Assembly (NCBI GenBank): GCA_044892525.1
Contig: CM097886.1
Location: 82,026,001 to 82,090,000, forward strand
Direction of reading: 5' to 3'
Length of the DNA: 64,000 bases
Source of the DNA: Schmidtea polychroa
Lineage: Eukaryota
The notes below the pieces were generated by a model, which saw nothing but the letters and a program-made list of their open reading frames with translations, did no database searches and had not been told where the DNA came from. Shown here one piece after another: positions 20,116 through 43,495 of the stretch (positions are counted from its first letter, which is position 1; every line of letters starts with the position of its first letter). The translations under genes were made by a program, and so were the position numbers.

Positions 20116-20192
20116 TTCCTTCCTCGGTTTGGTTTGGAAATCTCTGAACTAGTTCGCTGTAGGCTAATTAAAGGTTCCGAAATCTGTCAAGT

Positions 20193-22610: not shown

Positions 22611-23648
22611 TTATACAAAGGTCTCTTCCTGGCCTACATATCCTTCATCGCTTTCTACTGACGTTTGTAATTGGAGTGCGATGGGATCAAATGGGATGTA
22701 GTACCGGGGAATCTGCGCTCTAAGTTCTTGGACTTCGTCTCTTAGCGCTCTTGACACATTGAGTTCCTCGTCCAATAGGTAGGTTAAATACCTAGTTTCG
22801 TCATCCCGTACCTCTATCTGTTTTTCCAACTCTTCTGCCTTTTCGCCGTTCTCCCATTTCTTGATCTCCTTTTCTAGGTTCTTGATATTTTCGTCGTACA
22901 TCTTTCTCTCGTTTTCCAATTTCTTGTTCTTACCGGCTAGCACTATATTCCTTTGTTCTAGTGCCCCCTTATAGCCGTTATTATCTCTTTCAAGATCTGC
23001 CACCTTGTTTACGAGTTCGACGATTCTACCTGACTGTTGCAGGATCATCTCTTCCATGGCGGTATTCTCCTGTTCCTTTATAGACAGTTTCATGGCTAGA
23101 TGCCTTTCAAATTCCATGGCCTTGGTCTGCCAGGTCTGACTTCGTGCTGCTATTTTCCTGAGCCTTCTTAGCTCTTCTCTCTGATCAAGGTTTTCTTCCC
23201 ATTTCCCTTGATCACTCTCGTGTTCCAACCTCTGCGGCAATTCTCTCATCTCTTTTTGGATTTCCCGATGTTGTTTTTTCCACTTTCTGGCTTCTGCTAA
23301 TAGTTGGCGGGTCTTTCTTTCCTCCTTTTGTTTTTCTATTTCCCGCTTCTTATTCTCATCCGTTAGTCTTTTTCTTGATTCTTGTACTAGCTGCTTCAGG
23401 TAATGCCCGTGCGCCTCTTGCCTGGTATTTTCTAATGCCGACCATTTGGCGGCTCTTTTGCAGGCCTCGGCCTCTGCCCGTAAATTCTGTACTAACCACT
23501 GGAATTGGTGGTTTTCCCATTCTCTCGCTTCTTCGAGGTAATTTCGTGTTTGGTTTGATAATTGTATCATTACTTTGACCCATATTCCCTTATGGATTTT
23601 ATTGACTTTGGTTTCGTGGTTTGGGGCTTCAGTTCCTTCTTGTGTCAT
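22611..23648 (-). CDS. 345-aa accessory coiled-coil protein, orphan
   Basis: Intact ATG ORF of extended heptads; ttatttag|acaaagATG; ends in ETFV. Confidence 0.82.
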   Translation of the reverse strand: MTQEGTEAPNHETKVNKIHKGIWVKVMIQLSNQTRNYLEEAREWENHQFQWLVQNLRAEAEACKRAAKWSALENTRQEAHGHYLKQLVQESRKRLTDENKKREIEKQKEERKTRQLLAEARKWKKQHREIQKEMRELPQRLEHESDQGKWEENLDQREELRRLRKIAARSQTWQTKAMEFERHLAMKLSIKEQENTAMEEMILQQSGRIVELVNKVADLERDNNGYKGALEQRNIVLAGKNKKLENERKMYDENIKNLEKEIKKWENGEKAEELEKQIEVRDDETRYLTYLLDEELNVSRALRDEVQELRAQIPRYYIPFDPIALQLQTSVESDEGYVGQEETFV

Positions 23649-23868: not shown

Positions 23869-25258
23869 CTACTCAGTCCTACTCTTCCCGTCTCGTCTCA
23901 CCGCTATTTTTATGTATATAGTGTCGTTTCTCGTCATGTCTTCTACTTTCCGCTGTAGGATGAAATTTGGTGCTCCAGTTGCTGGTCCTTCTTCTTCCAA
24001 GGGCCTTTGGTAACATACGAGGTTTCCCGCTGTATGGAAACTCTGTTCATGAATACTTTGATGGTTCATCATTGCGAGGTCTATTTTTGCTTTGAATGGC
24101 CATTCTATTAACTCGTCGTATGGCCCTTTGCACATCAAGAAGAATACTGAGAAATGCGTTCCGTATGCACTTCCATCCCCATTGGGGTATGTTTTCATTT
24201 TCATTTTATACCCGTTTTTCCATGAGTAGAATGCTGGACTTAGTAATGTTGTATCCTTTTCCATTTCTCGCTCTCTGCATCTTCTCTTTTACTCCCGTTA
24301 TTTTCCATATGTATGGAGCCGTGGGTATTAATTCGTTGAGGTTTAATTCGCTTACTTTTTGATGTAGTTCTTTCACCATAATGTTGCTAGTTTCTACTAG
24401 ATTTGTCTGTATCTTTGTACTTGTTCTCGCCTCTTCAAATGCTTCCTTTTCTTCCAATAGTTCTTTTACCAACGTTTTTAGCGAGACTATTTCTCTTTCT
24501 AAGTTTTCGGTTTTCCTTTCGTTTTCTTGTAATACCGTTGACCATATTTCCGCGTGTGTTGATACGTTTTCTGCTAGATGTTGGGGTAATTCCCCTCGGT
24601 GTAATTGTTTCTGACATCCCCATTTTCCTAACACACACCTTATCTTTTTCCTTTCACACTCTTTTAGATGTTGAGCGAGTTTTATTACTCCGGGTTTATC
24701 GCATTTATTGGGACATTCTCCTCTGAATTCTGCGCACACTTTCTCCTCTTGTATGTTGTGATGTTGCCTGATTAGTTTTTTCCAGGTGTCGGTTTCTCCG
24801 CAATACTCACATTTCTCCAGTCTTTCTTCGCATCGACTTTGATGTTCTGCTTCTTCATTGACTTTAATCTCTTCTTGGCAACGTTTGCATTGACTGATTT
24901 TATACTCACATTGCTCCATATGTTGCCTTACTTCCCATATCACTCCTCGCCAACTACATGGGGTGTTTTTACATCCTAGGTTTGCATTCAACATATCTTT
25001 TACAGCTGCTTTATCTTCGTTTGTATCTCCCAAACTTGTTATCATTGTTTCTTTGCATACTGGGCACCATTGTGGTCCCTTCTTTATTATCTCCTCTACA
25101 CATTCTCTGCACATTCTGCATCCACATCTGGTTTGGTGAGGTTCTCTTAATAAGCTCTTGCATATTCCACACGTTACATGGTTGTGTATTCGAATTGTGG
25201 TGGACTTTCTGACTTGTTCAACAATTTCTTTGAATTCTTCTCGTTGTCGCTTATCCAT
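23869..25258 (-). CDS. TRAF-family homologue (RING, TRAF zinc fingers, coiled coil, MATH) split by a 1-nt frameshift near 24257-24260
   Basis: RING CGICKSLLREPHQTRCGCRMCRECV..CPVCK; CPNKC and GC..HL..H zinc fingers; MATH motifs YIWKI in one frame and LSPAFYS..GYKM..YPNGDG..GTHFSVF..GPYDELIEWPF..YIKI in the next. Removing one A gives a 462-aa TRAF with no introns. Confidence 0.92.
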
Positions 25259-25263
25259 TTCTA

Positions 25264-25298
<35 letters not shown>

Positions 25299-25359
25299 GT
25301 TACTGGTACAGTTTCGTATTTTTATTTACAGTTATTTACATTGCTATTTTAGGTTATAT

Positions 25360-25719
25360 TTATTGGCTGGAAGAGTCGGCCTCTTGTCCGCCTTCTTCCC
25401 TGCTGGTTAACCATTCTGACCAGCCTTCTATCTCCTCTCGCTCCATTTCTTCCGCGATTCTTATTAACTCCTCTTCTTGCACCTGGCTGTATCGTGATAT
25501 TCGGTCTATCTCTCGCTGCATTTGTTCTATTTTTATTCGTTGATCTTCGATTATTCTTACATAACTGAAGCCTTTATTTAAACTTTCGACTAAGCTTCTT
25601 TGTACAGCGAGTCCTTGTTCCTGTAAATTTGAAATCACTTGAGTTAACATTGCACATTGTTGTTTCCACATCTCCTCGGTTGTTGTACTGTGATTTACTT
25701 CCTCGCCTATTCGCTCCAT
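25360..25719 (-). CDS. 119-aa accessory coiled-coil/acidic protein, orphan
   Basis: First ATG at 25719 (the ORF track starts at TTG 25743); amphipathic heptads; lies between the polyprotein stop and TRAF on the same strand. Confidence 0.65.
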   Translation of the reverse strand: MERIGEEVNHSTTTEEMWKQQCAMLTQVISNLQEQGLAVQRSLVESLNKGFSYVRIIEDQRIKIEQMQREIDRISRYSQVQEEELIRIAEEMEREEIEGWSEWLTSREEGGQEADSSSQ

Positions 25720-25887
25720 TCTTAATTTATATATACTTTTCAATCCTTATCTAATTTTATTTTCATATTAATTATCCCCATCATTATATACTATTGATAC
25801 CGCGCTTATATAAAAATATAGAATACTGTTATATAAATAAATATTACCTACTTACTTTTTACAATCTATATACAGTCATAATCCTTT

Positions 25888-26890
25888 CTATATACGTGAG
25901 CTTGGAGGGCGCTGAGCATTCCAGGCCTCCACCCACTGTTCCTGCTTGATATTACTTGGTCGTTTTACATGATGTTGAAAATTTCTTATTCTGGCCATTT
26001 CTAGTTCTCCGCGATGCCGTCTATCTTTGATTATTTTTATTGTCCCCCCCGTTATGATTAAAAAGGCCCCTGTTATTATTATGCCGCTGATCCACATCAT
26101 CTGTTTTACGCTTATAATTTCCGCTTTTTCCTTGCTCGTTAGTGTTGATATTGCTTCTGTGCTTTTTAGATTACCATCTTTGCCATTTCCTTTCATCATT
26201 TCTCGTATTCTTGCTATTTCCTCGTTCATACCTTCCTTTGCCATTTTTTGTATTTTCTCCATCTCCTCCTCGGATACATAATTGTCTTGATGTTTCTCAC
26301 TGTTTTTCTTGCGTTTTCCTTGCTCATCTTTTTCATCATTGATTTTTCTTTTCTTCCCTCTTTTCCCAGGGTATCGTCGACATTCTCTCGCTGTATCTTT
26401 TCTCCAGATGCATATTGTGTATTCTTTTGGAGGTTGTTGCTGTATTACATATTGTAGACAGTCTTCCCCCGGTCTTAATCTTGCAATGCAGACTTTGTGT
26501 TCTTTTCTTGGCTGGAGTTGCGTTATCACTACCTCACCTCCTTTTCCCAGATGTACCTCCTTCCCTTTGACTTTCGTTATTCTCTTTCCGTCTCGATTTC
26601 GATATGCTTCTTGTATTCTTACTTCCGTTATTGGTTCTGCATCTTCATTTTTTAACACTAGTCTCTGATAAGCTCTAGACATACATCTTCCTAATATACA
26701 CCTTTCTTTTAAATCCCATTCTTCTTTTAGATCCCATTGCTGCTCTTGTACTTGTTTTTTCTTTTCTTGTTTTAGTTCTTCCTCTTTGTTGTCCTTATTT
26801 TCCGTTTCTTTGGCTTCTTTTATCGTTCTCATTCCTCCCTGGGCTGTTATCATTTCCACCATTGTTAATACGAGTATCATTATCATCATA
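25888..26890 (-). CDS. Polyprotein C-terminal type-I membrane module
   Basis: Signal-like MMIMILVLTMVEMITAQ, Cys-containing ectodomain, TM MMWISGIIITGAFLIITGGTIKII, basic tail. Confidence 0.65.
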
Positions 26891-29800
26891 TTTGTCTCCA
26901 TTTCTTTGTTGGTAAAAAGTAGACATACCCTCTGTTTTCCATTATTCGTCTTTTCTTCTTGCTTTATTTGGTTTCTCGGGTTGTTTTCCTCTTTTTTCCT
27001 ACTCGCGTCGTTATTTTCTTGATTATTCTCCTCTGATTTCTCTTTCTCTTTATTCCCGTTTCGACTTTTTCCATTATTATCGTCGTCTTTATCGTCTTTA
27101 TCTCCCCCGCTATCGTTTAAAATGTCGTCCTCGACATTTATATCATTCAACAATCTGCGGTATGCCGTTAGCACCCTGTTTCTTGCTAATTTTGCTTCGA
27201 ATTCGAACTCCTTTCTGCCTGTTGCTACATGTCTCTTTCTATTCCATTCTTTCACTAATTCTCTTAATTGTATCCGACGATGTTTCCCGATTCGCTTTTG
27301 TTCGTTTAGATTCTGCGTGAATTTGAGATCTTCCCTGTTTAATACGATCATTATGATTTTCGGAGTTCCTCCTTTTGTTAGTGTATTTTTAACCATAGCA
27401 TTTTCTCCGTTTTCGTAGAACTCATTTATATTTATTGCATATTTATTGCTTTGTGGTATTCTCCATGTTAGCAATAACTTCATGGCTTCTAAGTTCATCC
27501 GTATCGTGTTCCATTGGAATTGTGACGTGTTTTTACAGATATTTTCTACCTCAGCTCTTATAGCATTTTTACAAATGAATCTAATCATTTCCAAGTTTGG
27601 TTGTATCGTTGCCCAATCCATGGTAGATTTTCCTTCGTTTGATATTTCGTCAAGTCTCGAACCTGATTGATGTAGTATATGTAAGGTTTTCGGGTGTATC
27701 TTTGTTATTGCTGCATACATCATTGCTGTTTCTCCTTGTTCATTTTTTGTATTAGATTTTTCTCCGAAGTCTCTAAGGATTCTTATGATGGTTATTGCTC
27801 TGTTTTCTTTTGCTGCTAAAATGGCTTGTTGTAATGGTGTTCTTGAGTCTTTTGTTGGTAAGGTGAATGCTAGTGGTATAAATGTTTTTATTTTTCCTAT
27901 GTCTAGATTTGTGGTCTGATCTCTTGCGTAGGTGTGTACTGTTTTGGTTATTTTTGCTAGTATCGCTTCATCTGATAGATCTTGCATTTCTTCAAAGAAT
28001 ACTTCTTTAGCCTTGCGTACTACTATCTCTTGGTCGGAGTTTATTGTCTTTGGTTTACTTGTTGTTGCTATATCGGTTATTGGTTGATCGACTTGTTCCT
28101 CAGACTCTCTTGCTTTTACTTTCTTTATTTTTATCTTTTTCTTGTTCGAACTGTTAATGCGTTCCTCCGCCGTTAGAACTTGAATAATACTTAGGTAGTT
28201 TTCTCGAATGTTATTCATAGTTTCCATCATATGTAAAACACTCACGGTGTCCCAAAATTTTACTTGTACTTTATCGGTAAATTGAGATATAGCTTTTTCG
28301 AAGTTGGTAATTCGTTTTCTGATTAGTTGTTCGTCTTTGTGATTTGAGAACTTTATGCCACGTTGTAGTAGTTGATTTGGAATTTCGAATAGGTGATGTC
28401 CTCTCATCGCTTCTCTCATCAAGGTGTTTTCCCCTTTGGTAAATGTTTCGTTTATATCTACCATATAATCGTTTTTTATCGGGTTCCTCCATGCAATTAG
28501 TATTCCAGTAATTGTTGTTAATTTCTCTTTGATTGCAGTTAATAGCCCGTCATACATGTTTCCTATCTCTCTATTATCCTCGTATGATATTAGATCTACT
28601 AAGATTATGAAGGCTTCCGTACTTTTCCCTTCGATTGCATGATGTAGTGCATTTTTCTGGCTGTGGTCTTGTGTGGTTATCTTTGACCCAGTTTCAAGTA
28701 ATGCGATGATAATATCTTTAGCTTTATCCCGATTGGCTGCAATCATTAGTGGAGTGTAACCTTGGTTGTTTTCTTGATCCGTCGAAATGTTACAATCGCG
28801 AAATGCTTCGATCGTTTCCAGTATTTGTTCATTATTCCCGACCTTTAAAAGTTTGTGCAACGGTGTATCTCCATAATGGTCTGTGATCGTGAATAATATA
28901 GGCCATTGACCTTTAACTACCCTGAGCAATGGGTGTGTTCTTTCTCGATTTGCATAGTTTTCTATCATTGTTAGCAGACCTCCCAATATCTCAAAATCTA
29001 ATCTGTCTTTTGCCCATCCAGGCATTTTAACTTTTACTTCCTTTATGATTTTCTCGGCTTCTGATGGTTGTAACCCTAATCGATTACCTGTTGGTTCGTT
29101 TATCTGCTGTAACATGTTTATTCTATACGTTTGTGATCTTGTCGTTAATGTACGTCCTTCTGGCTGACTGGTGGCGGTTTTCGGAATTGGCTTACATCGT
29201 GCAACATTTACGTATATTGGTCTTGTAAAAGGGTTGTTCACTAATCGTACTCTTACATTAGTTTCTCCGACGAATAGAATCTCATACGGACCTTTACCGT
29301 TTCGTTGTAATTTTTTGGTGGTTCCTGGAATTAATTCTGGTGTTTCGATCATCACCCAATCGCCTGTTTGAAACGTATGCTGTTTGACGTTTTTCTTTCT
29401 ATCATGTAGATCTTTGTAACTTTCTTGATAAAATTTTATATTCAATCCTGCAGTTTCCCAGATTTCCTGCATTCTTTCCTTGAACTTGGTTACATAATCG
29501 TCTATTTCCATGTATTGTGATATTGGTGGCTGATATTCTAAATCCATTGGCATATTGCATTCTCTGCCGTACATCAACTTAAACGGACTCATCTTTGTGG
29601 ACGCGTGAATCGACATTCTGTAAGCCATTAAACATAATTTTATATACTCGTCCCAGTCGCGTTGATGACGATCGACATAATTTGATAACATTTGAATCAG
29701 TGTTCCATTGAATCTTTCTGTCATACCATTAGTTTGTGGATGGTACGGTGATGTTCTTAATTTTGCGATCTTGAAGTAGTTGGTGACTTCGCTCATTATT

Positions 29801-32800
29801 TCGCTCATGAAATTTGTTCCTTGATCAGTTAATATCTGTTTTGGTGTTCCATATCGACAGCATATCTCCTCTACTAGTATTTTTGCGATTGTTTTTGCTT
29901 TCTGATCTGCCATAGCGAATGCTTCGGGGAATTTCGTCAAATAATCTGTGATTACCAATATATATATATTTCCTCTATCTGATTCTGGTAGTGGACCGAC
30001 TACGTCCATTGGTATCATTGTCATTGGTTCTGCTGGTACTGGCATTGGCTTTAATGGTGCTCTCCATTTTGTTCCCGTGTTTTTCCTGGTTGCGCAAGTT
30101 ATGCAATTTTTCACCCATTCCGTTACATCCTCGGTCAATGTAGGCCAAAAATACTTTTGTTTCATTCGTGCCAACGTCTTTTTAGATGACATATGTCCTC
30201 CGAGTCTTCCGTCATGGTATTGTGTTAGCAGCTCTTTACGTCTATTCTCGGGAATGCACATCAGTCTTTTCTCGCCATCCATTATCAACAACCAGTCTTT
30301 CTCGATAATATATCGATGTCGATGTTTATCCATATGCTCCTTCAGTTTTTGATCTTTCTCATATACCTCTGCTTTCCCTGTTTTCACATATTCAATGATT
30401 TGCTTCAACTCTGTATCCTCTTGTTGGTCTTTCCGTAATTGGCAAAAATCTAAATCTTCTGCTACCATCAGACATATTCGTTGCATTTCGTGGTCTACTA
30501 AATCTGGAAAGATAAATCTGGACATACAATCCGCATTGGCATTCGCTCTTCCCGCTTTGAATTTTATGAACGGTGAATATTCTTGTAACTGCATTGCCCA
30601 TCGCATCAATCTACTTGAAGCTTCTTTGTGTTGACCAAGCCATACTAATGGTTGATGATCCGTGGTGATACATATTTCGTGTCCCCATAACAAATATCGA
30701 AAATGTTTAATTGCTTGTATGATTGCTAACGCTTCTCTCTCGGTTACGGAATAGTTTTTCTCGTGCTTTTTAAACGTTCTGCTGTAGTATCCAATCACTC
30801 TTTCTTTTCCCTCTTCATCCAATTGTCCTAATATTGCTCCGGCTGCATATCCACTTGCATCTGTTGCTAATAAGAACGGTTTCTTGAAATCAGGATGTAC
30901 TAGTATTGGGGCTTCAATTAATTTATCTCGCAATGTCTCAAACGCTTTTTGTTGTTCTGCACCCCAAATAAATGAAATATCCTTTTTCACTAATTCCTGT
31001 ATTGGTTTCGCAATGCCTGCATAGTTTTTGATGAATTTTCGATAATATCCGCATAATCCGAGAAATTCTTGAACTTGGGTGACAGTTTTTGGTGCTGGAC
31101 ATGTTTTTATTTTTTCTATGTTTCTTGGATCTGGTTCTTTGCCTTTTGCTGACACTATGTGTCCTAAGAACGTAACTTTTTCTTTTGCCCAATCACATTT
31201 GGATGGTTTAAGTTTCAGTTTCCATTGTCGTAATCGAACGAACACGTTTCTGATATCTTCCAAATGTTGTTCGAATGTTGCTGAATATATTAATAAATCA
31301 TCAATATATACCATACACTGCTTGATCCCGTGTGTGACAAAATTCATACATCTCTGGAATGATGCTGGGGCATTGGTCAGTCCGAACGGCATTTTCCTGA
31401 ATTGGTATAGATCTCGGCCCAATGTGAATGCTGTTTTCTCTTTGTCTTCCTCTTTAACTTTGATCTGCCAATATCCGCTTTTTAGATCTAAAGATGTAAA
31501 ATATGCGGCCCCCTGCAGCATAAGTAACATCTCATTGATGTCTGGTAATGGGTATGTGTCTCTTTTTGTTACTGCATTTAATTTCCGATAATCGATACAG
31601 AATCTCTGAGTACCATCTTTTTTCTTCACCATGACTACTGGAAATTGCCATGGCGAACAACTTGGTTCGATCACTTGTGCATCTAGCATTTTTTGTACTT
31701 CGGCTTCGGCTATCTCTTTTTGCTTCTCTGCTAGTTTGTATGGACGTAGTGCGATTGGAGTTTCGTCTATTAATGGTATTGCGTGTAGTGTAACATCGCA
31801 TGCTCCCAAATCTAAATCCGAAATTGCGAATATATCTTTATATTCTATCAATAATTGTTGAAGTCTTTCCTTTTCTTCTCCCGTTAGCAAGGTGCTATCA
31901 ATTATCCATAATTCGTCAGCTTTCGTTGTTTCGTTGGTGATTTTTGGTAATTCGATGTCTATCATGGGTGTCAATCTACCCAATCTTTCATTTTCATATA
32001 TGATCTTATCTTCTTCCTCGAAATTTGTGATGTTAATTGGTATTTCCCCGTCTTCATTTATTGTTATTATTTCTCTTGCTAATGGTAATTCTCGTCGTTT
32101 TTCGAATGATTTGCTTGGCTCAAAAATGACTTCTCCTTCCATTCCTGTATCCACTTTTATTTGACATATCATCTGTGATTTTGCGGGTACAATTATTTTC
32201 TCCGGACATCTAATTATTGCGTTCATCTTGCATATTCTACCCATTTTGTCTTTTAGACACATTGTTGTTAAATCGATTACTACTTCCTTGAACAATTCCG
32301 GCATTAAATCCGTTCCGATTATACATGGTTCACTCAGTTTGGGTATCACCGCTAGATACGTTTCAATTTCGTTATCCTGATATCGTAACGTAGTCCACCA
32401 TCTTCCTACTACGTCTACGGTTTCTTTACTGCATGCAATAATATGGATAGTTGTTTGTTCGATATCTTTCCAACATTTACTGGGTATTTGGTTTATTGCT
32501 ATTGCTGATACATTTGCTCCGGTATCTATCATTGCACTTGTCTCTTTCCCGTTGATTTGGATCATGACTGTTACTGCCGCACCTCCTGGTGAACTCATCA
32601 CTGCTATTGTTCTTACGTCGTCCGCTTGGTCTACACTTTTCGTTCTTCGGGTCGGCATATAGTTCATATCTGGTTGACTTGGTAATTGTGGATACATATT
32701 TGGTGTCATGGTCAAAGCGGTTTGTTGTCCAACGATATCTGGTGGTATATAACTTCCGTTGGCTATCCAGGTATTTGTTTTTTCTTTTTCCCAATATGGT

Positions 32801-35800: not shown

Positions 35801-38800
35801 TCGGTTTCGGTTTCTGTTGTATTATCGATAATCCCCTTGATACTTAGCTTATTTGGCTGCTGATAGCTAGTTGACGGTTGGCTTGTTGTCCATATTTCGG
35901 CTCCTGTCGGCCATCTTACCAGAATTGGTGATCTTTCTCCAGCTCCTTCATCGCTGTCTTCCAATATAATTTCCTCGATTTCCTCGGTTTCATTCGATTT
36001 ACTCGTCACTTTGTTAGGGCTTGGTGTACTCAAGCTACCTTTCGTAGGTTTACCGGATTTGCTCTTCCTTTTAATCGGTTTTCCCAATGTTTCTGCCATT
36101 GTCAATACATTGATCTCCCCCAATCTCATGGGTGTTATTCCGACATCTGCATTATCATCCAACGATTTTCCGAATAGTTGTAGGTGAAATGGAGTTTCGT
36201 ATGCTAATTTCTTTTTTAACTCTCTGATCTTTGTTGTTGGATGTACTTCTGTATCCTCAATGCTTTTGTCGGGATACTTGACTCGGATACGATACCTTTC
36301 CTGGGTATCTTGTGCCCATTCTTGGTTTCTCCATTTCCTAATAATTTGTTCTAGCTGTTCTGGGTACCATTCGTTATATTGTCTGTATTCCTCAATCGCT
36401 TTCGCCATTTCTCTTAGATTGTGGATATTCTCTGATGTCTTTAGGATGATGTTAGCCAATGCTATTACTTGACGTTTTTGATTTTTTGCTCCCGTTGCTA
36501 AGATATCACCTAATTGTTTATATCTTTCCTTCTCTTCTCGTTCTCGAGCTTCCATCGCTTCTTCGCTGTCCATATCGGCATATTCGCGTTCTTTCTTTCT
36601 CATCGCATGAATATGTCTGGTTTCCGTTTCACTTTCCGATGTAACATCCGTTTCGCTTTCGTCGTCCGATGTCGATTCTATTTCGTCCTCTTCGTATTTT
36701 GGAGGTTCATCTTCCTCTTCTTCTGATTCGCTTTCTATCTCACCAATGTCTGTTTCCACGAAAATCCCTTTCCTGATTTCCCATTCTTTGTTTTCGGCAT
36801 TCCACATCCTTTCCCATGGGGTTCGTCTGCAGGATCTAACACTTAGTTTCTTTATTTTTCCTTGAAGCTCTTTTTCTTTTAGCCACTGTTGATGAATTTC
36901 AATTATCTCTACTGATTTTTGATATAGCGTTTTCATCCTGTCTCGTATTTCTTTCTGGTATGTTATATCTCTTGTTCGGAATTCGTCCATGGGCAATATT
37001 CTGATGATTTGATGATTATCCCACATTCCCATTTCGCTTAGCGAGGTGTCGTCTTCGGCCCGTAATATTATTTTATCGTACATCATGACTACATCATCTA
37101 TCATCCCGTCGCTACTCTCGCTTCGTACTTTTTCCGTTATCTCTTGGTTTATCTTGGTTACTAAGTCATCCACCGTACTCTGATTACTCATCTTTATTCG
37201 TCGTTTCTCCTCGTTTGGTAACCATATGGTTATTTCTAATTTCTGCGGTTGCGTTTCTTTTACTCTTCCGTATTTGTGGATCAAATTTATGGTTCTCCAA
37301 TCACTCATCCTGAGCAATTCTGTATCTCGTAATCGGCTCATTAGCTCATGCATGTCTGCAGTTCGTCTTGTTATGAGCAAATCCCAGTTATCCTCAACTT
37401 GTTCTTGGATTTGCTTGATTAATTTATCTAGATTTCGTCGCAAGGTGCATTGTTTTATTTGTTCCAGCTTCAGCTTGATGTTAAAGTCATACTCGGCCTT
37501 GGCGTCTTTAGCCCATTCGTGAATATTTGCTGGTTGCTTCTCTTTATACAATTTCAATATTTGAGTTTCTCCTGGCCAGATCAATGCATCTATTAGGTGC
37601 ATGTCTGGTTTGATTTGTTCTCCTTGATATTGATACAGGTATTCTTTCTTTCTCGAGCTGCCCAAATGTTCTCTTATCCAATCGAAAAGATCGTCTGTAA
37701 CTGCATTTTTTATCCATATTCTCTCGAGTCCTTTACTTGTTCCGATTTTTATTACATAACGTGTTGTCTCCGCTTGTTTCATTTTTTCCATATACTTCTT
37801 TATTATCGCTTTTTCCTCGTTTGGTATTAGATCTTTTTCGTTTCTTTCTAGTTTCATTATCTTTTGTATGAAGCGTCTGTATGGTATGATGTCAATGAAT
37901 TCCTGGTTTCTTACCACCACTGGAAGTATTTCCTTTACTTGTTTTATCGATTCTTCTCTTTCTTTTCTCAATTTCATTTCGATATTCTCGTCTTCGCTTT
38001 CACTTGTTACGTCGCTTTCACTCTCCTCTTCATCTGTTCCGATCTTCTCTCTTAGTTGGTTGATATTTTCATTTAACTGCAATATTTCTCCACCAAGGCT
38101 ACTCACATAATCCTCATCGTCATCTGTTGACAATACCTTCTTTGTCGTCCTCATCATATTAATTCGTAAATTTCTCATTCTTGGTACTTTCTTTAACTTT
38201 TTGTTCTCGAATAACGTTAGCTCCTCTGAGTTCGATTCTCGTATCATATCATGATTTAGATGATTAATCTGTTTTTCATTTTCGTTATTCTCTGCTTCTG
38301 CTTCTGTTTTTGTTTTCTCATTTTCTCTTTCGATTTTATCTTTTATCTTTTTCCAAAATATTTTCTGAATTCTCTGATTTCCTTTCAGCGGTGTTGTTGA
38401 ATTTTCCTTTTTTGCTGCTGTAATTGTTTCCTTCGGTTTCTCTGGTTCGCTCGTAGGTACAACTCTTGGATTTTTACCATAGTTGTAACAATATTGCTCC
38501 TTTATCTCCTTTACCATCCTCATCATATTTATTCGTAGTGGTTGTTCTTGTCGCTGTTGAATTCGCTCTCTTTTTATCCTCTCTTCTTCAGCTTGTAGTC
38601 TTTGCCATTCTTGTGCATGTTGTTGCACTTCATAATTGTTAAGATTCTCGGTGCTTCTCATCATGCGTATATTCTGGGTTTGTTGTGGTACTTGCTCTTG
38701 TCTCGGTCTCATCATTTGTTGCATCATCTGCTTCATTTGTGAAATTTCTTGCATCACATTCATTTGCTTTCCCTCACTAGGATTACTTTGTCGTTGCGGA

Positions 38801-40314
38801 TTTGGTGCATAGTTATTATTTCGCTGTGGTGGTCGTTGCTGTTGGCTCCTTTCTCGACAGTCTCTTGAGATATGACCTGGTTGACCGCAGTTAAAACATC
38901 CTCTCGATTGGCATATATTTTCCGTGTGTCCTCGTCGTCCACACCTATTGCAATTTGCGTTTCGGTAACAATCTCTATCCCAATGTCCTGGTTTACCGCA
39001 TGTTCGGCATTGTTTGTTATCGTTCATATTTCGTCGATTATTAAAGTTGTTTCCATTGTTCGAGTTGTTGCGTTCACTGTTATTCCCGTTTGATCGTCCT
39101 TGTGGTGGTTTGAAGATTTGATGTGCTCCTGGTATAAACTGATTCATCTTGGGTTCATGATTATTGTTATCCCCATTTTCCGTTTTCACCGTTGCTGTTG
39201 CGATTCTTCCCTCCTCTTGCATGACGTTCATTTGTGCTGGGAGGTGTAGTTCGCATCTTGTGGCCCAATCTATGGCTTCTTCTAGTGTTTTACACATTTG
39301 ACATCCCACCGAGGCCCTTACCTCTTCTCGGCGTAGTCCTTCTATGAAGTACCCAATTAAGTTTTCCTCCGGCAAGTTTCCGTTCATGGCCTTCTTTGCC
39401 AATCTTCGCAATTCACTTGCGTATAACGTAATTGACTCGTTTGCTCTTTGTTTTCTACTTGCCAGTTCACCTAACGCTTGATTTATCGGTTTGCTAGCTC
39501 CGAATGTTTTTCTCAAAAATGTTTTGATGTTTTCCCAATTGTCCAATTTCGTATTTCTTTCTTTTGCTTCTAGATACACTTCGAGTGCGCTATCGCACAA
39601 AAACAGAGGCATTCGTTTACTAATTACTTTGGACGTCCATCCACACACATCGATATAGACTTCAAAGTTGGTTATGAACGTTGCCAACTTGTTCGCATTC
39701 CCGTTGAACGGTTCGCCTCTAAATTTCTCTTTATATTCGTCGGTTTTTGCTACATTCATCTTGATTGGTTCTTGAAATGCTATTATTTCTTTTAAATTTT
39801 CTAGTGATGTAGCCAAACTATGGACGGATAATTCTTCTGTTGACCCGGTTAGGTTGTTTGTTATATCGGATAGACTTTCTCTACTTCTAGATCGACTGGG
39901 CGTATGTCCGGCTGTGGGGTTTTCTTGATCGTATATCGGTGTTTTGTGGGGTCTTTTTGCTCCTTGTGATATTCCTCTCTGCTGCCTAAATGATCGTCCT
40001 CTTTTGAGTTGATCTAATTCGTCTCCTGAAAATAATACGTCTCCTGGCTTACTTGAAGATCTAAGGTTGGGTTTATCCGTGATTTTCCTTTTACTCTTTT
40101 CTGTCTTTTCACGTGGATTTTCTACGGTTAGCGTCTGCTGAATTGGTCGAGTTTGGTTCTGATATTGTTTTCCTTTGTGCGGGTTCTGAATTGCTTTTCC
40201 TGGGTTGTTTGTATATTCTCTGGATTCCTCTTGAGCTGCTTCTGAATTGACTTGGTTGGATTGATGTCTACAATGAAAATATGATATCGTGTTGCCTTTG
40301 CTTACACGAATCAA
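25888..40314 (-). CDS. 4,808-codon Gag-UBL-Bcl2-Env-PR-RT-RH-IN-ANK-TM polyprotein
   Basis: Single stop-free frame of 14.4 kb; the first ATG is only at codon 186 (39759), so the true start is unresolved. Confidence 0.95.
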   Translation of the reverse strand: MIRVSKGNTISYFHCRHQSNQVNSEAAQEESREYTNNPGKAIQNPHKGKQYQNQTRPIQQTLTVENPREKTEKSKRKITDKPNLRSSSKPGDVLFSGDELDQLKRGRSFRQQRGISQGAKRPHKTPIYDQENPTAGHTPSRSRSRESLSDITNNLTGSTEELSVHSLATSLENLKEIIAFQEPIKMNVAKTDEYKEKFRGEPFNGNANKLATFITNFEVYIDVCGWTSKVISKRMPLFLCDSALEVYLEAKERNTKLDNWENIKTFLRKTFGASKPINQALGELASRKQRANESITLYASELRRLAKKAMNGNLPEENLIGYFIEGLRREEVRASVGCQMCKTLEEAIDWATRCELHLPAQMNVMQEEGRIATATVKTENGDNNNHEPKMNQFIPGAHQIFKPPQGRSNGNNSERNNSNNGNNFNNRRNMNDNKQCRTCGKPGHWDRDCYRNANCNRCGRRGHTENICQSRGCFNCGQPGHISRDCRERSQQQRPPQRNNNYAPNPQRQSNPSEGKQMNVMQEISQMKQMMQQMMRPRQEQVPQQTQNIRMMRSTENLNNYEVQQHAQEWQRLQAEEERIKRERIQQRQEQPLRINMMRMVKEIKEQYCYNYGKNPRVVPTSEPEKPKETITAAKKENSTTPLKGNQRIQKIFWKKIKDKIERENEKTKTEAEAENNENEKQINHLNHDMIRESNSEELTLFENKKLKKVPRMRNLRINMMRTTKKVLSTDDDEDYVSSLGGEILQLNENINQLREKIGTDEEESESDVTSESEDENIEMKLRKEREESIKQVKEILPVVVRNQEFIDIIPYRRFIQKIMKLERNEKDLIPNEEKAIIKKYMEKMKQAETTRYVIKIGTSKGLERIWIKNAVTDDLFDWIREHLGSSRKKEYLYQYQGEQIKPDMHLIDALIWPGETQILKLYKEKQPANIHEWAKDAKAEYDFNIKLKLEQIKQCTLRRNLDKLIKQIQEQVEDNWDLLITRRTADMHELMSRLRDTELLRMSDWRTINLIHKYGRVKETQPQKLEITIWLPNEEKRRIKMSNQSTVDDLVTKINQEITEKVRSESSDGMIDDVVMMYDKIILRAEDDTSLSEMGMWDNHQIIRILPMDEFRTRDITYQKEIRDRMKTLYQKSVEIIEIHQQWLKEKELQGKIKKLSVRSCRRTPWERMWNAENKEWEIRKGIFVETDIGEIESESEEEEDEPPKYEEDEIESTSDDESETDVTSESETETRHIHAMRKKEREYADMDSEEAMEAREREEKERYKQLGDILATGAKNQKRQVIALANIILKTSENIHNLREMAKAIEEYRQYNEWYPEQLEQIIRKWRNQEWAQDTQERYRIRVKYPDKSIEDTEVHPTTKIRELKKKLAYETPFHLQLFGKSLDDNADVGITPMRLGEINVLTMAETLGKPIKRKSKSGKPTKGSLSTPSPNKVTSKSNETEEIEEIILEDSDEGAGERSPILVRWPTGAEIWTTSQPSTSYQQPNKLSIKGIIDNTTETETDEQFQRQKVPTKATPEGQTDKIIDEWNEWLRNNDSSLPRTDNERNPNYENTREAGTMMEKRAKGRPKKQGEKPEFKTREQLKQEQGQVRLEKLDKIVWDLKEAQPTIERGEKWIRELVKDMLIITNPQLRRLWQRKVASVDARQLWNTISGIIPKLIKEKTKTTKTDWEETRRVIEQLTLNANDDEHHLVVLTYLMYNLMGLAARKIPNKQFANHVEMTVTIIENTIEPHIIRAGGWKRLIQAPRKNEQERSMQIRLKKLLNELEWELPLKDPASRKASINSLMMTMMIWMLCTSGAAGFTIYDCDNSIIGERYSLRDIEECRQASPNKLDIVKKKVSYHVYQESDFIRTQARECVVSKKVLAYYCGQYSYSTLILPGLDKEIVPIQREDCKELFRTGAMRIRDGVTIHGQSGMIKTESIYVAGRVKSTDGSCNGGTYTIRGEVISGVVVIESYTVELKEYEAQFDANNYQMKTNPACRATENVCRTGISTIIYEANTQKCRLQLLKSALFNEVKGEIYENEDDDEENGNVRMRNGKPVPPSPKEKRLTTQKTPTALITDDPDIGMRFIREKETTKCDSIVYRTNYAGIYMSRQVIDRAVGKVATEDVKLYLYANNKMDFLFHRGQTTMQKVYYDLIQNDCSLNKEILKTKLAIAITHPDNTMPSLPLPDGHFGRMVGEVMYTYACTKTFARLPRKPTIPPGKCANELEISYKGRNRFVQPVTRIMNPIGFYPNTFNCSNAYGPLYEKPDGKWIMLPVKTEVQEPKKFGLIELATEQDFKPIDVSKAGMYSPEDLETARLNVLFPARRESILSNMVTITGGTNFQSGPNYELLLSPDHFQQATSNMMKAMWGRFLVFGQMMAGILGIILIIQIVRVILTQMLACFDIYKREKKVNWKLIVGFLPFLAKTMVLHGHSKDIHRIKRLIKILTKIKGTDEEVGRRFRKTMYDEATRTQLKKNKPKFLDRFRNRSNSSDSDDDDNGNDKYPYPSRNPNEKPIETAPYWEKEKTNTWIANGSYIPPDIVGQQTALTMTPNMYPQLPSQPDMNYMPTRRTKSVDQADDVRTIAVMSSPGGAAVTVMIQINGKETSAMIDTGANVSAIAINQIPSKCWKDIEQTTIHIIACSKETVDVVGRWWTTLRYQDNEIETYLAVIPKLSEPCIIGTDLMPELFKEVVIDLTTMCLKDKMGRICKMNAIIRCPEKIIVPAKSQMICQIKVDTGMEGEVIFEPSKSFEKRRELPLAREIITINEDGEIPINITNFEEEDKIIYENERLGRLTPMIDIELPKITNETTKADELWIIDSTLLTGEEKERLQQLLIEYKDIFAISDLDLGACDVTLHAIPLIDETPIALRPYKLAEKQKEIAEAEVQKMLDAQVIEPSCSPWQFPVVMVKKKDGTQRFCIDYRKLNAVTKRDTYPLPDINEMLLMLQGAAYFTSLDLKSGYWQIKVKEEDKEKTAFTLGRDLYQFRKMPFGLTNAPASFQRCMNFVTHGIKQCMVYIDDLLIYSATFEQHLEDIRNVFVRLRQWKLKLKPSKCDWAKEKVTFLGHIVSAKGKEPDPRNIEKIKTCPAPKTVTQVQEFLGLCGYYRKFIKNYAGIAKPIQELVKKDISFIWGAEQQKAFETLRDKLIEAPILVHPDFKKPFLLATDASGYAAGAILGQLDEEGKERVIGYYSRTFKKHEKNYSVTEREALAIIQAIKHFRYLLWGHEICITTDHQPLVWLGQHKEASSRLMRWAMQLQEYSPFIKFKAGRANANADCMSRFIFPDLVDHEMQRICLMVAEDLDFCQLRKDQQEDTELKQIIEYVKTGKAEVYEKDQKLKEHMDKHRHRYIIEKDWLLIMDGEKRLMCIPENRRKELLTQYHDGRLGGHMSSKKTLARMKQKYFWPTLTEDVTEWVKNCITCATRKNTGTKWRAPLKPMPVPAEPMTMIPMDVVGPLPESDRGNIYILVITDYLTKFPEAFAMADQKAKTIAKILVEEICCRYGTPKQILTDQGTNFMSEIMSEVTNYFKIAKLRTSPYHPQTNGMTERFNGTLIQMLSNYVDRHQRDWDEYIKLCLMAYRMSIHASTKMSPFKLMYGRECNMPMDLEYQPPISQYMEIDDYVTKFKERMQEIWETAGLNIKFYQESYKDLHDRKKNVKQHTFQTGDWVMIETPELIPGTTKKLQRNGKGPYEILFVGETNVRVRLVNNPFTRPIYVNVARCKPIPKTATSQPEGRTLTTRSQTYRINMLQQINEPTGNRLGLQPSEAEKIIKEVKVKMPGWAKDRLDFEILGGLLTMIENYANRERTHPLLRVVKGQWPILFTITDHYGDTPLHKLLKVGNNEQILETIEAFRDCNISTDQENNQGYTPLMIAANRDKAKDIIIALLETGSKITTQDHSQKNALHHAIEGKSTEAFIILVDLISYEDNREIGNMYDGLLTAIKEKLTTITGILIAWRNPIKNDYMVDINETFTKGENTLMREAMRGHHLFEIPNQLLQRGIKFSNHKDEQLIRKRITNFEKAISQFTDKVQVKFWDTVSVLHMMETMNNIRENYLSIIQVLTAEERINSSNKKKIKIKKVKARESEEQVDQPITDIATTSKPKTINSDQEIVVRKAKEVFFEEMQDLSDEAILAKITKTVHTYARDQTTNLDIGKIKTFIPLAFTLPTKDSRTPLQQAILAAKENRAITIIRILRDFGEKSNTKNEQGETAMMYAAITKIHPKTLHILHQSGSRLDEISNEGKSTMDWATIQPNLEMIRFICKNAIRAEVENICKNTSQFQWNTIRMNLEAMKLLLTWRIPQSNKYAININEFYENGENAMVKNTLTKGGTPKIIMIVLNREDLKFTQNLNEQKRIGKHRRIQLRELVKEWNRKRHVATGRKEFEFEAKLARNRVLTAYRRLLNDINVEDDILNDSGGDKDDKDDDNNGKSRNGNKEKEKSEENNQENNDASRKKEENNPRNQIKQEEKTNNGKQRVCLLFTNKEMETNMMIMILVLTMVEMITAQGGMRTIKEAKETENKDNKEEELKQEKKKQVQEQQWDLKEEWDLKERCILGRCMSRAYQRLVLKNEDAEPITEVRIQEAYRNRDGKRITKVKGKEVHLGKGGEVVITQLQPRKEHKVCIARLRPGEDCLQYVIQQQPPKEYTICIWRKDTARECRRYPGKRGKKRKINDEKDEQGKRKKNSEKHQDNYVSEEEMEKIQKMAKEGMNEEIARIREMMKGNGKDGNLKSTEAISTLTSKEKAEIISVKQMMWISGIIITGAFLIITGGTIKIIKDRRHRGELEMARIRNFQHHVKRPSNIKQEQWVEAWNAQRPPSSRI
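27320..28900 (-). CDS. Polyprotein domain: two blocks of ankyrin repeats
   Basis: YGDTPLHKLL, QGYTPLMIAA, QKNALHHAI (28350-28900) and SRTPLQQAI, QGETAMMYAA, EGKSTMDWAT (27320-27860). Confidence 0.85.
29200..30240 (-). CDS. Polyprotein domain: integrase (HHCC, DDE core, GPY)
   Basis: YHDGRLGGH..KYFWP..CITC; MDVVGPLP; LTDQGTNF; YHPQTNGMTERFN; KGPYEI. Confidence 0.97.
30520..31800 (-). CDS. Polyprotein domain: reverse transcriptase and RNase H
   Basis: RFCIDYRKLN, LDLKSGYWQI, MPFGLTNAPASFQ, YIDD (31297-31308), FLGH; ATDAS, YSVTEREALAI, TDHQPL, NANADCMSR. Confidence 0.98.
32290..32580 (-). CDS. Polyprotein domain: aspartic protease
   Basis: AMIDTGANVSAI and C-terminal IIGTDL motif. Confidence 0.95.
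33070..34965 (-). CDS. Polyprotein domain: signal peptide plus chuvirus-like (class III) envelope glycoprotein
   Basis: SLMMTMMIWMLCTSGAAG|FTIYDC..YSL.DIEEC, YYCG, AGRV..DGSC.G, C.LNKEIL, GEVMYTYAC, ELEISY..FVQPVTRI, AGMYS.EDL..LFP, WGRFLVFG..GILGI TM: the Cys and motif order I recognise from chuvirus G proteins. Confidence 0.85.
35080..35470 (-). CDS. Polyprotein domain: Bcl-2-like helical domain
   Basis: IENTIEPHIIRAGGW resembles Bcl-xL BH2 LNDHLEPWIQENGGW; a hydrophobic BH1-position helix HLVVLTYLMYNL lies upstream but lacks NWGR. Confidence 0.7.
36100..37764 (-). CDS. Polyprotein domains: three ubiquitin-like folds
   Basis: 37550-37764, 36994-37242, 36100-36297; the third reads RIRVK..EVHPTTKIRELKKKL..LQLFGKSLDD vs ubiquitin EVEPSDTIENVKAKI..LIFAGKQLED. 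Confidence 0.65.
38857..39759 (-). CDS. Polyprotein domain: Gag capsid-like region and three CCHC zinc knuckles
   Basis: PFNG..FITNFE..GW, KQRANESITLYASELRRLA, FIEGL, TLEEAI; knuckles CRTCGKPGHWDRDC, CNRCGRRGHTENIC, CFNCGQPGHISRDC at 38857-39009. Confidence 0.95.
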
Positions 40315-40992
40315 TCATTCCTTTTTGCCACATTCAAGCACAGACACCGTTTTAGGGCCTCTGTTATACTTCTCTTCATTTCCCCTCATACGCTTCTTCG
40401 CGGAATATAATTACCCATCAACCCATATTTTTCGTCGATTTTAAATTATCTATTTGGGGTAGTAACAATTATCTATATAGTCGTATAAATTATCTATAGT
40501 TAGCATTTATAATATCGATAGGTCGTTGTCAGTTACTGCTTATTACCTCCCATATTTTCTTAATCCTTTTACGCGGTTCCGCTATTTTACTTAATCTTTC
40601 ATCTCTGTTTCCCCTTATTTGGTTCTACTCTGTAACCAAAACAAAATTCGTTTAACCGGTTTAAACCAAAAAAATTCTGTAGAACTTTGTCTACTTATCT
40701 GGGATCCCTTTTAATTAATTAATCACCTTCCTCTTTTACTCATCATTTATTCTCACTTATTCTTTATTTTCATTATCTCTTTAATTCATTTTCCTTTTCA
40801 GTTTCTCTTTCTCACTGAAAAAAAAAGTTTCGTCATTACCTCCCACGAGCTCGTTTAATCCTTTCTAAATTCAAATACTATATTTCAAACTCAATTTGCT
40901 TCTAGCTAGCTTTAATATTCCATCTCACTAGTAATTTAAATGTTATCAACTTGTAGCTTGAATGCTATCTCACTATTACTTTAGGCCTTTAC

Positions 40993-41430
40993 GACTGGCT
41001 GGCACTTTTCAACAGCTCAATCTTCTTCATCTCCGAACTGGCTGGACTTTTCACAGCTCAGTTTTAATTTTCCCTGACCGGCTGGACTTTTCAACAGCTC
41101 GGCCTTAATATCTCCGACTGGCTGGACTTTTCACAGCTCAGTTTCAATTTCCCTGACCGGCTGGACTTTTCAACAGCTCGGCCTTAATATCTCCGACTGG
41201 CTGGACTTTTCACAGCTCAGTTTCAATTTCCCTGACCGGCTGGACTTTTCAACAGCTCGACCTTAATATCTCCGACTGGCTGGACTTTTCACAGCTCAGT
41301 TTCAATTTCCCTGACCGGCTGGACTTTTCAACAGCTCGGCCTTAATATCTCCGACTGGCTGGACTTTTCACAGCTCAGTTTCAATTTCCCTGACCGGCTG
41401 GACTTTTCAACAGCTCGGCCTTAATATCTC
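40993..41430. repeat. Tandem array in the 5' leader: 79-bp dimer (39+40) x5 plus one degenerate monomer
   Basis: Core GGCTGGACTTTTCA(A)CAGCTC 11 times; unit starts 41116, 41195, 41274, 41353 are exactly 79 apart. Confidence 0.97.
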
Positions 41431-42012
41431 TAAACTCTGCGTGCTTCCGTTCCTTTTCTGTCTTTATTCTATACTGTCATCTTCCTATTTTTACTTTTAT
41501 TTGTCGACTTAATCTGTACCGCTTTGGAAGGTTTCCCCTTTCCCCCCTTGCTCAAAACGCAAAACGATCGCATTGATCCATTTCTACATTGGTATGGTGA
41601 TCAGCCATACCGCAGAAACTTTTCAATATTCGCGATGGTACCTCGCCTTACATCTCTTACTCGGGGTGATCGGTTGTCCCTTCCCAAATGGTTCCAATAT
41701 CGTACCTCCCGAAGGTGGCTCGGTTTATTCCCCCTTTAACACTATGATGGGACTAGTTCCACTTTAAAAAATCAATTTAAATTTTTAAAATGCCCTTTCT
41801 TCATGGTGAAAATTATAACAACACAAATCAATTTATAACTTCGTATAATGAAATGAATACACAAAAAGGATTTATTAGTTATTTACTCCACATTACAGAT
41901 AATATATGCTATCATTATAAAACATTACCGAATTAATTCAGAACAAAAATAAAAAAATGTTTAATCTAATTGTTAATCATCCAATTTCCTTCACCGAGCG
42001 ACGATCGCGTAC

Positions 42013-42492
42013 CTAACTGAAGTAGATTGTGTGCTTCTCTTTTATTACACATGTGCACATAGAACAACGGATTAAACTGGCGGCGCATTCGTCACAATGG
42101 CTAAGGTGCCCACAAGGTAGAATCAGAATTTTGACAGGTCGCATCCTGCAAATGTTACAAGTTCTCAAGGCCGCTGCTTTCTCTACTATTGATGTTCGTA
42201 TCCGCTGAGACAGAGTTTTGACTTGTTCGCGTATCTTCACATATTCGATGTTCAGAGCGGGGTCGTCGAGACGTTGCTGAAACCATTGGTAATGAATAGA
42301 CAAGTCGGTATCGGTATTTGTTGATCCTAATCTGTCGGTTAGAAAGTTCTGTTTGGATATCAGCGGTGCGTTGTGGCTTTGTTGTTCTAGCAGTTCTATT
42401 TGTTTCAGTTTTTCCCTTAATGTTTTTATTGAATCATTTTCTATTTCGACGAACCGGCTTAGCTGTTGTAGATGTTGTCTAGCTTCTGACAT
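42013..42492 (-). CDS. 159-aa coiled coil plus IAP/Mdm2-type C-terminal RING protein, upstream of gag
   Basis: CNIC..ILILPCGHLSHCDECAASLIRCSMCTCVIKEKHTIYFS-stop; catttag|atATG; AATAAA ~140 nt downstream. Confidence 0.88.
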   Translation of the reverse strand: MSEARQHLQQLSRFVEIENDSIKTLREKLKQIELLEQQSHNAPLISKQNFLTDRLGSTNTDTDLSIHYQWFQQRLDDPALNIEYVKIREQVKTLSQRIRTSIVEKAAALRTCNICRMRPVKILILPCGHLSHCDECAASLIRCSMCTCVIKEKHTIYFS

Positions 42493-42931: not shown

Positions 42932-42949
42932 ATCCCGGCTGAGCCCCCA
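42932..42949 (-). promoter_or_regulatory. Primer-binding site, tRNA-Pro type
   Basis: Minus strand TGGGGGCTCAGCCGGGAT, 16/18 identical to the classical tRNA-Pro PBS TGGGGGCTCGTCCGGGAT, 7 nt from the 5' LTR. Confidence 0.85.
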
Positions 42950-43495
42950 AAAATCATGTTGGCGTATGTGGAGAAGGAAAAAAGAATTATACATGCATTT
43001 CCATCACACCTATCAAGCATCATGGCTCCGTTATACATTTTCTACACATACTCCAAATGATTGATTGCATATTCCCACATATGAGCCCATGGTGATGTTC
43101 CATGTTGGTGCTGCTCATACGGGTCGGAAAAAGTTAGCAGGTGAGCCCCTGCCTTAGGACTACTCCTAACCCTTTCTCGGTTCGGGTCCACGGTGCCTTA
43201 GAAGGACTTACCCACATACATGCGTGTCACTCAGTCTGATCCTGGTCCAAAGGAACGACTTTCAACTTTAATTACCTTCATTCCGTAGCAGTATCTCATT
43301 TATCCTAATTGCACAAACAAATATATGAAAGCTCGACAAAACTGAAATCAAACAGAAAATTTTATTGACACTGAAACGATAAAACATCATACTACTAACA
43401 GATCAACAGCAGTCAAAAAGATATAACATTAGCAACATTCACAAGATAATTTACAACTCAATGAAGAGGAAAATCAAGCTCAATTGTCCGTCACG

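Follow-up and report, generated by a model that had tools for sequence, protein, structure and literature searches.

A gypsy-type long terminal repeat (LTR) retroelement of 30,574 bp occupies positions 16597-47170, on the minus strand, of a 64,000-nucleotide stretch of Schmidtea polychroa DNA (GenBank assembly GCA_044892525.1, contig CM097886.1, positions 82,026,001 to 82,090,000; hereafter the window, whose numbering is used throughout). It almost certainly belongs to the Burro family and carries, along with Gag, Env, and Pol, modules resembling host proteins of ubiquitin and cell-death signaling. On balance, we lean to the view that it is a recently inserted, Env-bearing Burro element whose cargo tunes these two kinds of host signaling so that the cells expressing it survive. 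The functional steps of this view are inferred from an anatomy that can be read directly. A preliminary description had seen in this DNA a coherent cell-death and immune-signaling toolkit carried by one retroelement, and all the modules that it named do lie within the single LTR element, on the minus strand between 23869 and 42492.

The Element and Its Family

The 5′ LTR (42957..47170, 4,214 bp) and the 3′ LTR (16597..20811, 4,215 bp), both on the minus strand like all coding features of the element given below, have TG...CA ends and are 99.93% identical by self-BLAST. Their alignment contains two substitutions and one 1-base gap across 4,215 columns. A 4-bp target-site duplication flanks the element on both sides, and this duplication and the near-identity of the LTRs indicate that the insertion is very young. 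A primer-binding-site-like stretch (42932..42949) lies 7 nucleotides (nt) inside the 5′ LTR end and may correspond to a tRNA-Pro site; no clear polypurine tract was seen upstream of the 3′ LTR.

The backbone is a single polyprotein frame (25888..40314) of 4,808 codons from stop to stop, whose first ATG, at 39759, gives 4,623 amino acids (aa). It starts with Gag (38854..39759), which includes a capsid-like domain (Retrotrans_gag, E 1.4e-9) and three CCHC knuckles read in the sequence (zf-CCHC, E 2.1e-10). An Env-like fusion glycoprotein (33055..34959; Monjiviricetes_fusion, E 5.2e-72), with a transmembrane helix at aa 2366-2382 by hydropathy, stands in frame between Gag and Pol. Pol (29125..32595) has aspartyl protease, reverse transcriptase, RNase H, and integrase in the gypsy order by Pfam.

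Burro elements of Schmidtea mediterranea are described in a 2019 review as exceeding 30 kb, with an ORF1 of 4,873 aa that includes three CCHC knuckles and, between gag and pol, an env in the same frame; the motifs listed for them are RING, MATH_TRAF, BIR, ankyrin, BCL2-like, and ubiquitin/SUMO-like (PMC6431247). The same account places them also in Dugesia, with reference to Jurka 2007 and Grohme et al. 2018, and suggests that they are integrated proviruses that may meddle with host apoptosis and ubiquitination (PMC6431247). The element of the window matches this description point by point, hence its assignment: more than 30 kb, 4-kb LTRs, a polyprotein of about 4,800 aa (Burro range about 4,800-5,100), three CCHC knuckles, in-frame env, ubiquitin-like, ankyrin, MATH_TRAF, and RING domains, accessory open reading frames (ORFs), and a tandem repeat. 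At the position before env where Burro has its BCL2-like motif, there is a candidate domain that scores below the Pfam cut-off. The placement of MATH is different, as it belongs here to a full TRAF gene downstream of the polyprotein, whereas it is within the polyprotein in Burro1 and in an upstream ORF in the element of D. tigrina. Since this polyprotein lacks MATH and there is no BIR, the element is not Burro1 (GYPSM1) by layout. Hence the copy seems, by layout, to represent another lineage.

RING and TRAF Genes

Accessory genes are found on both sides of the polyprotein, one upstream and five downstream. The upstream gene (42013..42492) codes for a 159-aa protein with a helical N-terminal part and a C-terminal IAP-type RING that runs to the last residue (Pfam zf-C3HC4_3, E 4.8e-8). 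The 10 best of its 37 PDB matches are the RINGs of cIAP1, cIAP2, XIAP, and BIRC7 (best E 1e-9); the XIAP matches reach the last residue, taking in the C-terminal tail, and all metal ligands are kept. The IAP-type RING previously proposed is thus confirmed. Isolated IAP RINGs are able to degrade other IAPs.

No BIR was found by Pfam in the nine main ORFs, nor in 26 further frames of at least 40 aa in the leader and the 5′ LTR, and a six-frame scan of the whole element for the BIR zinc motif found none on the coding strand. A hidden BIR was rejected, the sole loose match to the motif being on the noncoding strand and containing an internal stop. In the absence of a BIR anywhere, the RING protein is not an IAP. 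It shares the IAP-type RING with the B-IAP protein of Burro1, but the latter has BIR and RING.

The TRAF gene comprises an N-terminal part with RING, zinc fingers, and a coiled-coil-like stretch (24206..25258; TRAF6 E 1.9e-15, TRAF5 6e-13) and a MATH domain (23869..24288; Pfam E 1.8e-26, TRAF3 E 4e-24). The order RING, zinc fingers, coiled coil (the latter judged by eye), and MATH is that of the cellular TRAF2/3/5/6 and of the planarian Smed-TRAF-1/2 and -2A/B, but the gene of the element is intronless and split over two frames. The TRAF of the preliminary description is therefore recovered in all its parts, though not as one open frame. The break, a mutation or an assembly error, may be private to this copy, in which the gene as read would give a RING-zinc-finger protein without MATH. 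The RING has a Cys at the usual His position. In the alignment with the MATH domain of TRAF3, the serine run, which has a role in receptor binding, is not kept.

Modules within the Polyprotein

Three segments between Gag and Env are candidates for ubiquitin-like domains. The second (aa 1023-1110, 36985..37248) is the only one for which modeling supports a beta-grasp fold: its model has a predicted local distance difference test score (pLDDT) of about 70-85, a Foldseek E of 1.2e-4, and a structural alignment with Z 9.6 and a root-mean-square deviation (rmsd) of 2.9 over 76 aligned residues. The first (aa 851-925, 37540..37764) is weak, showing a strand-helix pattern at pLDDT 33-49 and no match to Pfam ubiquitin; two relatives share it at identities of 52% and 39%. 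The third (aa 1336-1410, 36085..36309) is also weak, with Pfam ubiquitin at E 0.016, an Atlas score of 0.90, and no PDB sequence match. The ubiquitin-like domains formerly announced thus hold firmly for one of three. None of the three has a terminal di-glycine: they are integral domains and not conjugatable modifiers. A BAG1-like unit of ubiquitin-like domain and helices is unsupported, as the ubiquitin-like part alone aligned.

The Bcl-2-like helical domain (aa 1586-1760, 35035..35559) lies directly before the Env-like region, the position expected for Burro. Pfam Bcl-2 (PF00452) matches it with E 0.099 in the whole protein and with E 0.0087 in a trimmed query, the latter at 17 bits for a curated cut-off of 31.4. 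A model made from two sequences has nine helices at pLDDT 42. With this low-confidence model, Bcl-2-family chains make up 20 of the best 40 Foldseek rows listed (131-159 columns aligned), a count affected by the over-representation of the family in PDB; none is significant, the best E being 0.59 overall and 0.95 for Bcl-xL. Realignment of Bcl-xL to the same model gives Z 5.4 and rmsd 7.0 over 86 aligned residues. A wide structure search of PDB with it lists no Bcl-2 chain among the best 50 matches (best Z 7.5, helical repeats), and BFVD has no significant match; these outcomes weigh neither for nor against the fold. By eye, a GGW at aa 1739-1741 is BH2-like, and the residue at the likely position of the BH1 arginine is His in this element and Arg in the relative P0001 (see below). 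The Bcl-2-like domain is the least secure of the modules, and in the proposed scheme its product would be the likeliest survival factor of the element.

The two ankyrin arrays lie after Pol and have about three repeats each: array 1 at 28585..28887 (Ank_2 E 3.9e-15) and array 2 at 27550..27876 (Ank_2 E 2.5e-8). Their top PDB matches are ankyrins, channels, and designed repeats. For array 1, the IkB-family protein Bcl-3 ranks 55 among the best 60 of 151 PDB matches, and for array 2 no IkB-family chain is among the best 60 of 65, in a ranking that favors long repeat proteins. Hence the arrays stand as proposed, while the matches listed give no specific affinity to IkB. Neither the ubiquitin-like domains nor the ankyrin arrays are recent internal duplicates, since no self-match appears at E 1.

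Processing and Expression of the Cargo

The polyprotein has 11 matches to a five-residue motif (typically R-I-N-M-M), against a mean of 0.70 and a maximum of 6 in 5,000 shuffles; P0001 has three, against 0.17 expected by shuffling. The matches are at aa 361 (capsid end), 517 (after the nucleocapsid), 2693 (after the protease), 3279 (between RNase H and integrase), 3731 (after the integrase), and 1783 and 4462 (ahead of two signal-like stretches), the others being at 594, 717, and 1234, where cuts would free the products with ubiquitin-like domains, and at 163, where the match looks like chance. A looser pattern adds a match at 2569, ahead of the protease. Because the domain boundaries among these are places where a retroviral-type protease should cut, the motif probably marks the protease cut sites that free the modules.

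The accessory genes show a different regularity. An acceptor-like T[AT]TAG is found 0-6 nt before the ATG in 5/6 accessory genes, compared with 4/225 other ATGs in the noncoding DNA of the element; under the plain [TC]AG rule, the counts are 5/6 and 55/225. Trans-splicing is known in flatworms, and these sites point to short mRNAs that are cis-spliced or trans-spliced to a leader. The TRAF gene has an (AT)n microsatellite (25268-25296) immediately before its acceptor-like site and ATG.

Relatives and Constraint on the Cargo

A homolog search with aa 1330-1790 gave one relative, P0001 (7,999 candidates scored), and one with aa 790-1790 gave two more, P0002 and P0003; no homolog was found at polyprotein length. 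A word-index search for RING-gene homologs of 87-279 aa found none, which is no evidence of absence. The relatives are 30-50% identical to the element. P0001 shares 44% identity with the element across Gag and ubiquitin-like domains 1-2; it has no ubiquitin-like domain 3, and its sequence stops within the Bcl-2-like domain. P0002, about 30% identical, has a MATH domain (E 3e-28) within the polyprotein, immediately behind the part that aligns to aa ~1180, and P0003 has TRAF-type zinc fingers at the same point. The MATH domain of P0002 and the zinc fingers of P0003 are, respectively, 35% and 36% identical to the TRAF parts of the element. P0001 has neither. Relatives therefore carry TRAF parts within the polyprotein at one swappable site, and the recurrence of TRAF pieces at different places in the family fits repeated retention.

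Compared with P0001, identity is 102/177 (58%) in the Gag capsid, 39/75 (52%) in ubiquitin-like domain 1, 42/88 (48%) in ubiquitin-like domain 2, and 67/114 (59%) in the N-terminal half of the Bcl-2-like domain, the last being comparable to the capsid. The linker before the Bcl-2-like domain has 27/175 (15%) in a global alignment and about 34% by local BLAST. This pattern, in one protein pair, suggests constraint on the modules. The cargo does not differ in codon use from gag and pol (third-position GC 0.32-0.43), which indicates old captures; a recent capture was rejected, as neither codon use nor third-position GC shows any sign of it. We hold with good confidence that selection has kept the cargo modules in the family.

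Role of the Cargo

In the scheme that we lean to, the aspartyl protease of the element would cut the polyprotein at the repeated motif and release three cargo products: ubiquitin-like domains 1 and 2 (about aa 720-1237), ubiquitin-like domain 3 with the Bcl-2-like domain (about aa 1238-1786), and the ankyrin arrays (about aa 3734-4465). The RING, the TRAF, and three more accessory genes would be expressed from spliced or trans-spliced short mRNAs. The captured modules would act on host ubiquitin and cell-death signaling, thereby sparing the cell that makes Gag, Env, and integrase from death or clearance. For the TRAF and for the RING without BIR, a role as adaptor, decoy, or dimer partner of host TRAFs and IAPs is likelier than that of a caspase blocker. 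The element itself would be the first beneficiary.

PMC13465017 relates from Lee et al. 2026 (Dev Cell, doi 10.1016/j.devcel.2026.03.001) that stem cells express Burro1 and that its BIR and RING protein B-IAP blocks caspase-mediated apoptosis in them and aids regeneration; in that account, benefit to the worm concerns Burro1. Host TRAF-like proteins are reported as required for cell survival in planarians (PMC7586133). cIAP1 binds TRAF2 through BIR1, and RING dimers are needed for activity (PMC3172091). Since this canonical link between IAPs and TRAFs needs BIR1, which is absent here, the RING is more plausibly a partner or a decoy, which leaves the Bcl-2-like domain, unproven as it is, to carry the survival role.

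Several points weigh against the survival scheme. With no BIR, the element lacks a full equivalent of the one cargo whose action has been shown in Burro1. The TRAF is split over two frames, with a switch at about 24290-24230 in the three-frame reading. The Bcl-2-like domain scores under the Pfam cut-off (17 versus 31.4 bits), has no PDB sequence match, has an uninformative Atlas score (0.77) and no Atlas lead, and is matched by an unrelated bacterial family with E 4.5e-5, and its conservation comes from one pair and from the first half of the domain. The ankyrins are generic, without specific affinity to IkB. Two Gag linkers are also 47% and 54% identical to P0001, so that identity alone is a loose guide for telling function from close kinship, and an open frame in so young a copy is no sign of selection. 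The cut motif and the T[AT]TAG site were both picked after inspection of the sequence. Finally, planarian PIWI silences Burro and Burro1 RNA is up in differentiated gut cells, while the release of transposons in stem cells after smedwi-2 RNA interference is described as minimal (PMC8532177).

The idea of a coherent toolkit is accordingly true of the modules as a set in one element, but it has to accommodate a missing BIR, a split TRAF, and a spread over three putative products of the polyprotein plus two accessory genes that stand apart. The further idea that the element keeps its host cell alive or dampens defense is right in general, is already published and reported for Burro1, and is weaker for this copy, which has no BIR, a broken TRAF, and an unproven Bcl-2-like domain. 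We retain a slight presumption for a pro-survival or defense-damping action of the cargo, and regard a net benefit to the host from this lineage as doubtful.

Among the alternatives, the modules may instead be life-cycle machinery, serving assembly, trafficking, or budding, or the proteasomal targeting of restriction factors such as proteins of the PIWI-interacting RNA (piRNA) pathway, as retroviral accessory proteins do. The fusion of ubiquitin-like domains between Gag and Env fits such a role, as do the RING E3-type nature of both best-supported accessory cargoes, the generic ankyrins, and the status of Burro elements as piRNA targets (PMC8532177). This would leave unexplained why an IAP-type RING, a TRAF, and a Bcl-2-like domain come from one pathway neighborhood, and the cargo of a sister element is reported to block apoptosis (PMC13465017). 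We give this alternative a minor though real chance.

True mutualism as in Burro1 seems similarly improbable. It would involve expression in stem cells and survival through the Bcl-2-like and TRAF modules, or through pairing of the RING with the B-IAP of Burro1 in replacement of a BIR of its own. It has a precedent in Burro1, which PMC13465017 relates at second hand, and it agrees with the conservation of the Bcl-2-like domain at the level of Gag and with the function of IAP RINGs as dimers (PMC3172091), but it fits poorly with the missing BIR and broken TRAF of this copy and with the minimal release of transposons in stem cells (PMC8532177).

Passive cargo, that is, pieces of host genes captured by template switching and now decaying, with the BIR-less RING and the split TRAF as relics, is quite unlikely. 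It would account for the TRAF frame switch, the missing BIR, and the variable presence of ubiquitin-like domain 3 and MATH among relatives, yet the RING keeps all its metal ligands and its C-terminal tail, the cargo is old by codon use with frames still open, and TRAF parts are kept in 2/3 relatives. Least probable is a pro-death or dominant-negative action, in which an IAP RING without BIR and a TRAF without MATH titrate or destabilize host IAPs and TRAFs, promoting death or blocking signaling: the domain content of this copy and the need of cIAP for BIR1 in TRAF2 binding and for RING dimers in activity (PMC3172091) would allow it, but the TRAF break may be private to the copy or an assembly error, and killing the host cell is no help to an element that needs inheritance.

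A bolder extension of the survival scheme, which we regard as speculative and less probable than the scheme itself, is that Burro lineages, as a family of Env-bearing endogenous elements, exchange host death and signaling modules at a fixed slot of the polyprotein and in an accessory cassette expressed by splicing or trans-splicing, and that this lineage follows a second, BIR-free survival route. The parts of that route would be a protease-released Bcl-2-like protein, a full TRAF, and a RING partnering other IAPs. The Bcl-2-like protein could possibly be held at the endoplasmic reticulum membrane by the signal stretch of Env if no cleavage occurs at aa ~1786. That stretch, Met/Trp-rich and located before Env at aa 1786-1803, is inferred to be a signal or an anchor, and falls under the hydropathy threshold used.

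Comparison with Other Systems

Large DNA viruses carry host-derived mimics of Bcl-2, IAP, and ankyrin proteins. The element shares with them the presence of host-derived death and signaling regulators on a genetic parasite, but it is vertically inherited and its cargo would be cut from a Gag-Env-Pol polyprotein. The planarian secretory cell nidovirus, which is not a retroelement, has a giant polyprotein with about three ankyrin repeats described as likely host-derived (PMC6211748).

Earlier publications already cover the family, its cargo, and the survival hypothesis, and the mutualism is reported for Burro1. The present analysis adds the TRAF parts at a seemingly swappable polyprotein site in relatives, the putative cut motif, and the acceptor-like sites before accessory genes. 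Literature searches listed no other paper on these points, which does not prove that none exists, and Grohme 2018 or Lee 2026 may already describe this lineage, its cut motif, or its splice pattern. A young, BIR-less sister lineage offers a contrast case for whether the benefit of Burro1 is due to that one gene or general to Burro cargo, and it also bears on whether the Bcl-2-like and TRAF modules work. Counts of TRAF, IAP-RING, and ankyrin genes in planarians may include element-borne copies. The expansion of planarian MATH/TRAF proteins is given as 121 domains (PMC6109357), and Burro-type elements could, if the proposed reading is true, explain a sizeable part of it.

Other Features of the Element

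Ahead of its first ATG, the polyprotein frame stays open over 185 codons (39760-40314), and P0001 is extended at its N terminus by about as much; the start is possibly non-ATG or spliced. A 100-aa query from the spacer between protease and reverse transcriptase has no Pfam match (the review of the family found a dUTPase-like region by HHpred). The C-terminal membrane module (25891..26892) has hydrophobic stretches at aa 4475-4491 and 4739-4755 around a cysteine-containing middle. It matched no known family and could be a second surface protein.

The four remaining accessory genes lie downstream of the polyprotein. One (25360..25719) codes for a helical protein of 119 aa and another (22611..23648) for a charged, coiled-coil-like protein of 345 aa, both without family by Pfam and ORF reading. 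A third (21734..22435) codes for a charged, coiled-coil-like protein of 233 aa with no family above the Pfam cut-off. The last (21043..21678) codes for a protein of 211 aa with signal-like and membrane-like hydrophobic stretches by hydropathy; between them is a glutamine-rich, coiled-coil-like part, and no family was identified. Near-identical AT-rich stretches with AATAAA on the minus strand (21693-21735 and 25318-25360) lie 3′ of two accessory stop codons. They are possible internal polyadenylation signals, which would fit an operon-like cassette.

The leader between the RING gene and Gag contains a 79-bp tandem repeat (40993..41430; 5.5 copies, 96% matches), each unit being composed of two similar halves. 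An Rfam scan for structured RNA gave no match, this repeat included. Each LTR contains an ORF, at 17136-17897 in the 3′ LTR (253 codons from Met) and at 43496-44131 in the 5′ LTR (211 codons), the latter shortened by a one-base difference near 17734/44093. These ORFs have no Pfam match; they show an early CxxC and a run of basic residues.

Flanking Region

The flanks of the element have ~20-35% GC and contain short-intron host genes. EMC2-like exons (10172-10900, plus strand; Pfam E 4e-27) end ~5.7 kb before the element. An insertion within a host gene was rejected, as these exons stop near 10900 and the site looks intergenic. On the other side, exons at 52742-53447 (plus strand) resemble the histone-binding part of Daxx; the one exon tested has no Pfam match at E 0.01. 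The proximity of a Daxx-like death and chromatin gene to the element is probably due to chance. A C2orf69-like gene (57179-57892, minus strand; Pfam E 6.7e-30) follows, and a frame at 59388-59708 (plus strand), without Pfam match, looks like the remnant of a hAT-type transposase. Runs of N at 3281-3452 and 63116-63257, which are assembly gaps, are both outside the element. A 137-nt inverted repeat pair at 47904-48319 may be a small DNA element.

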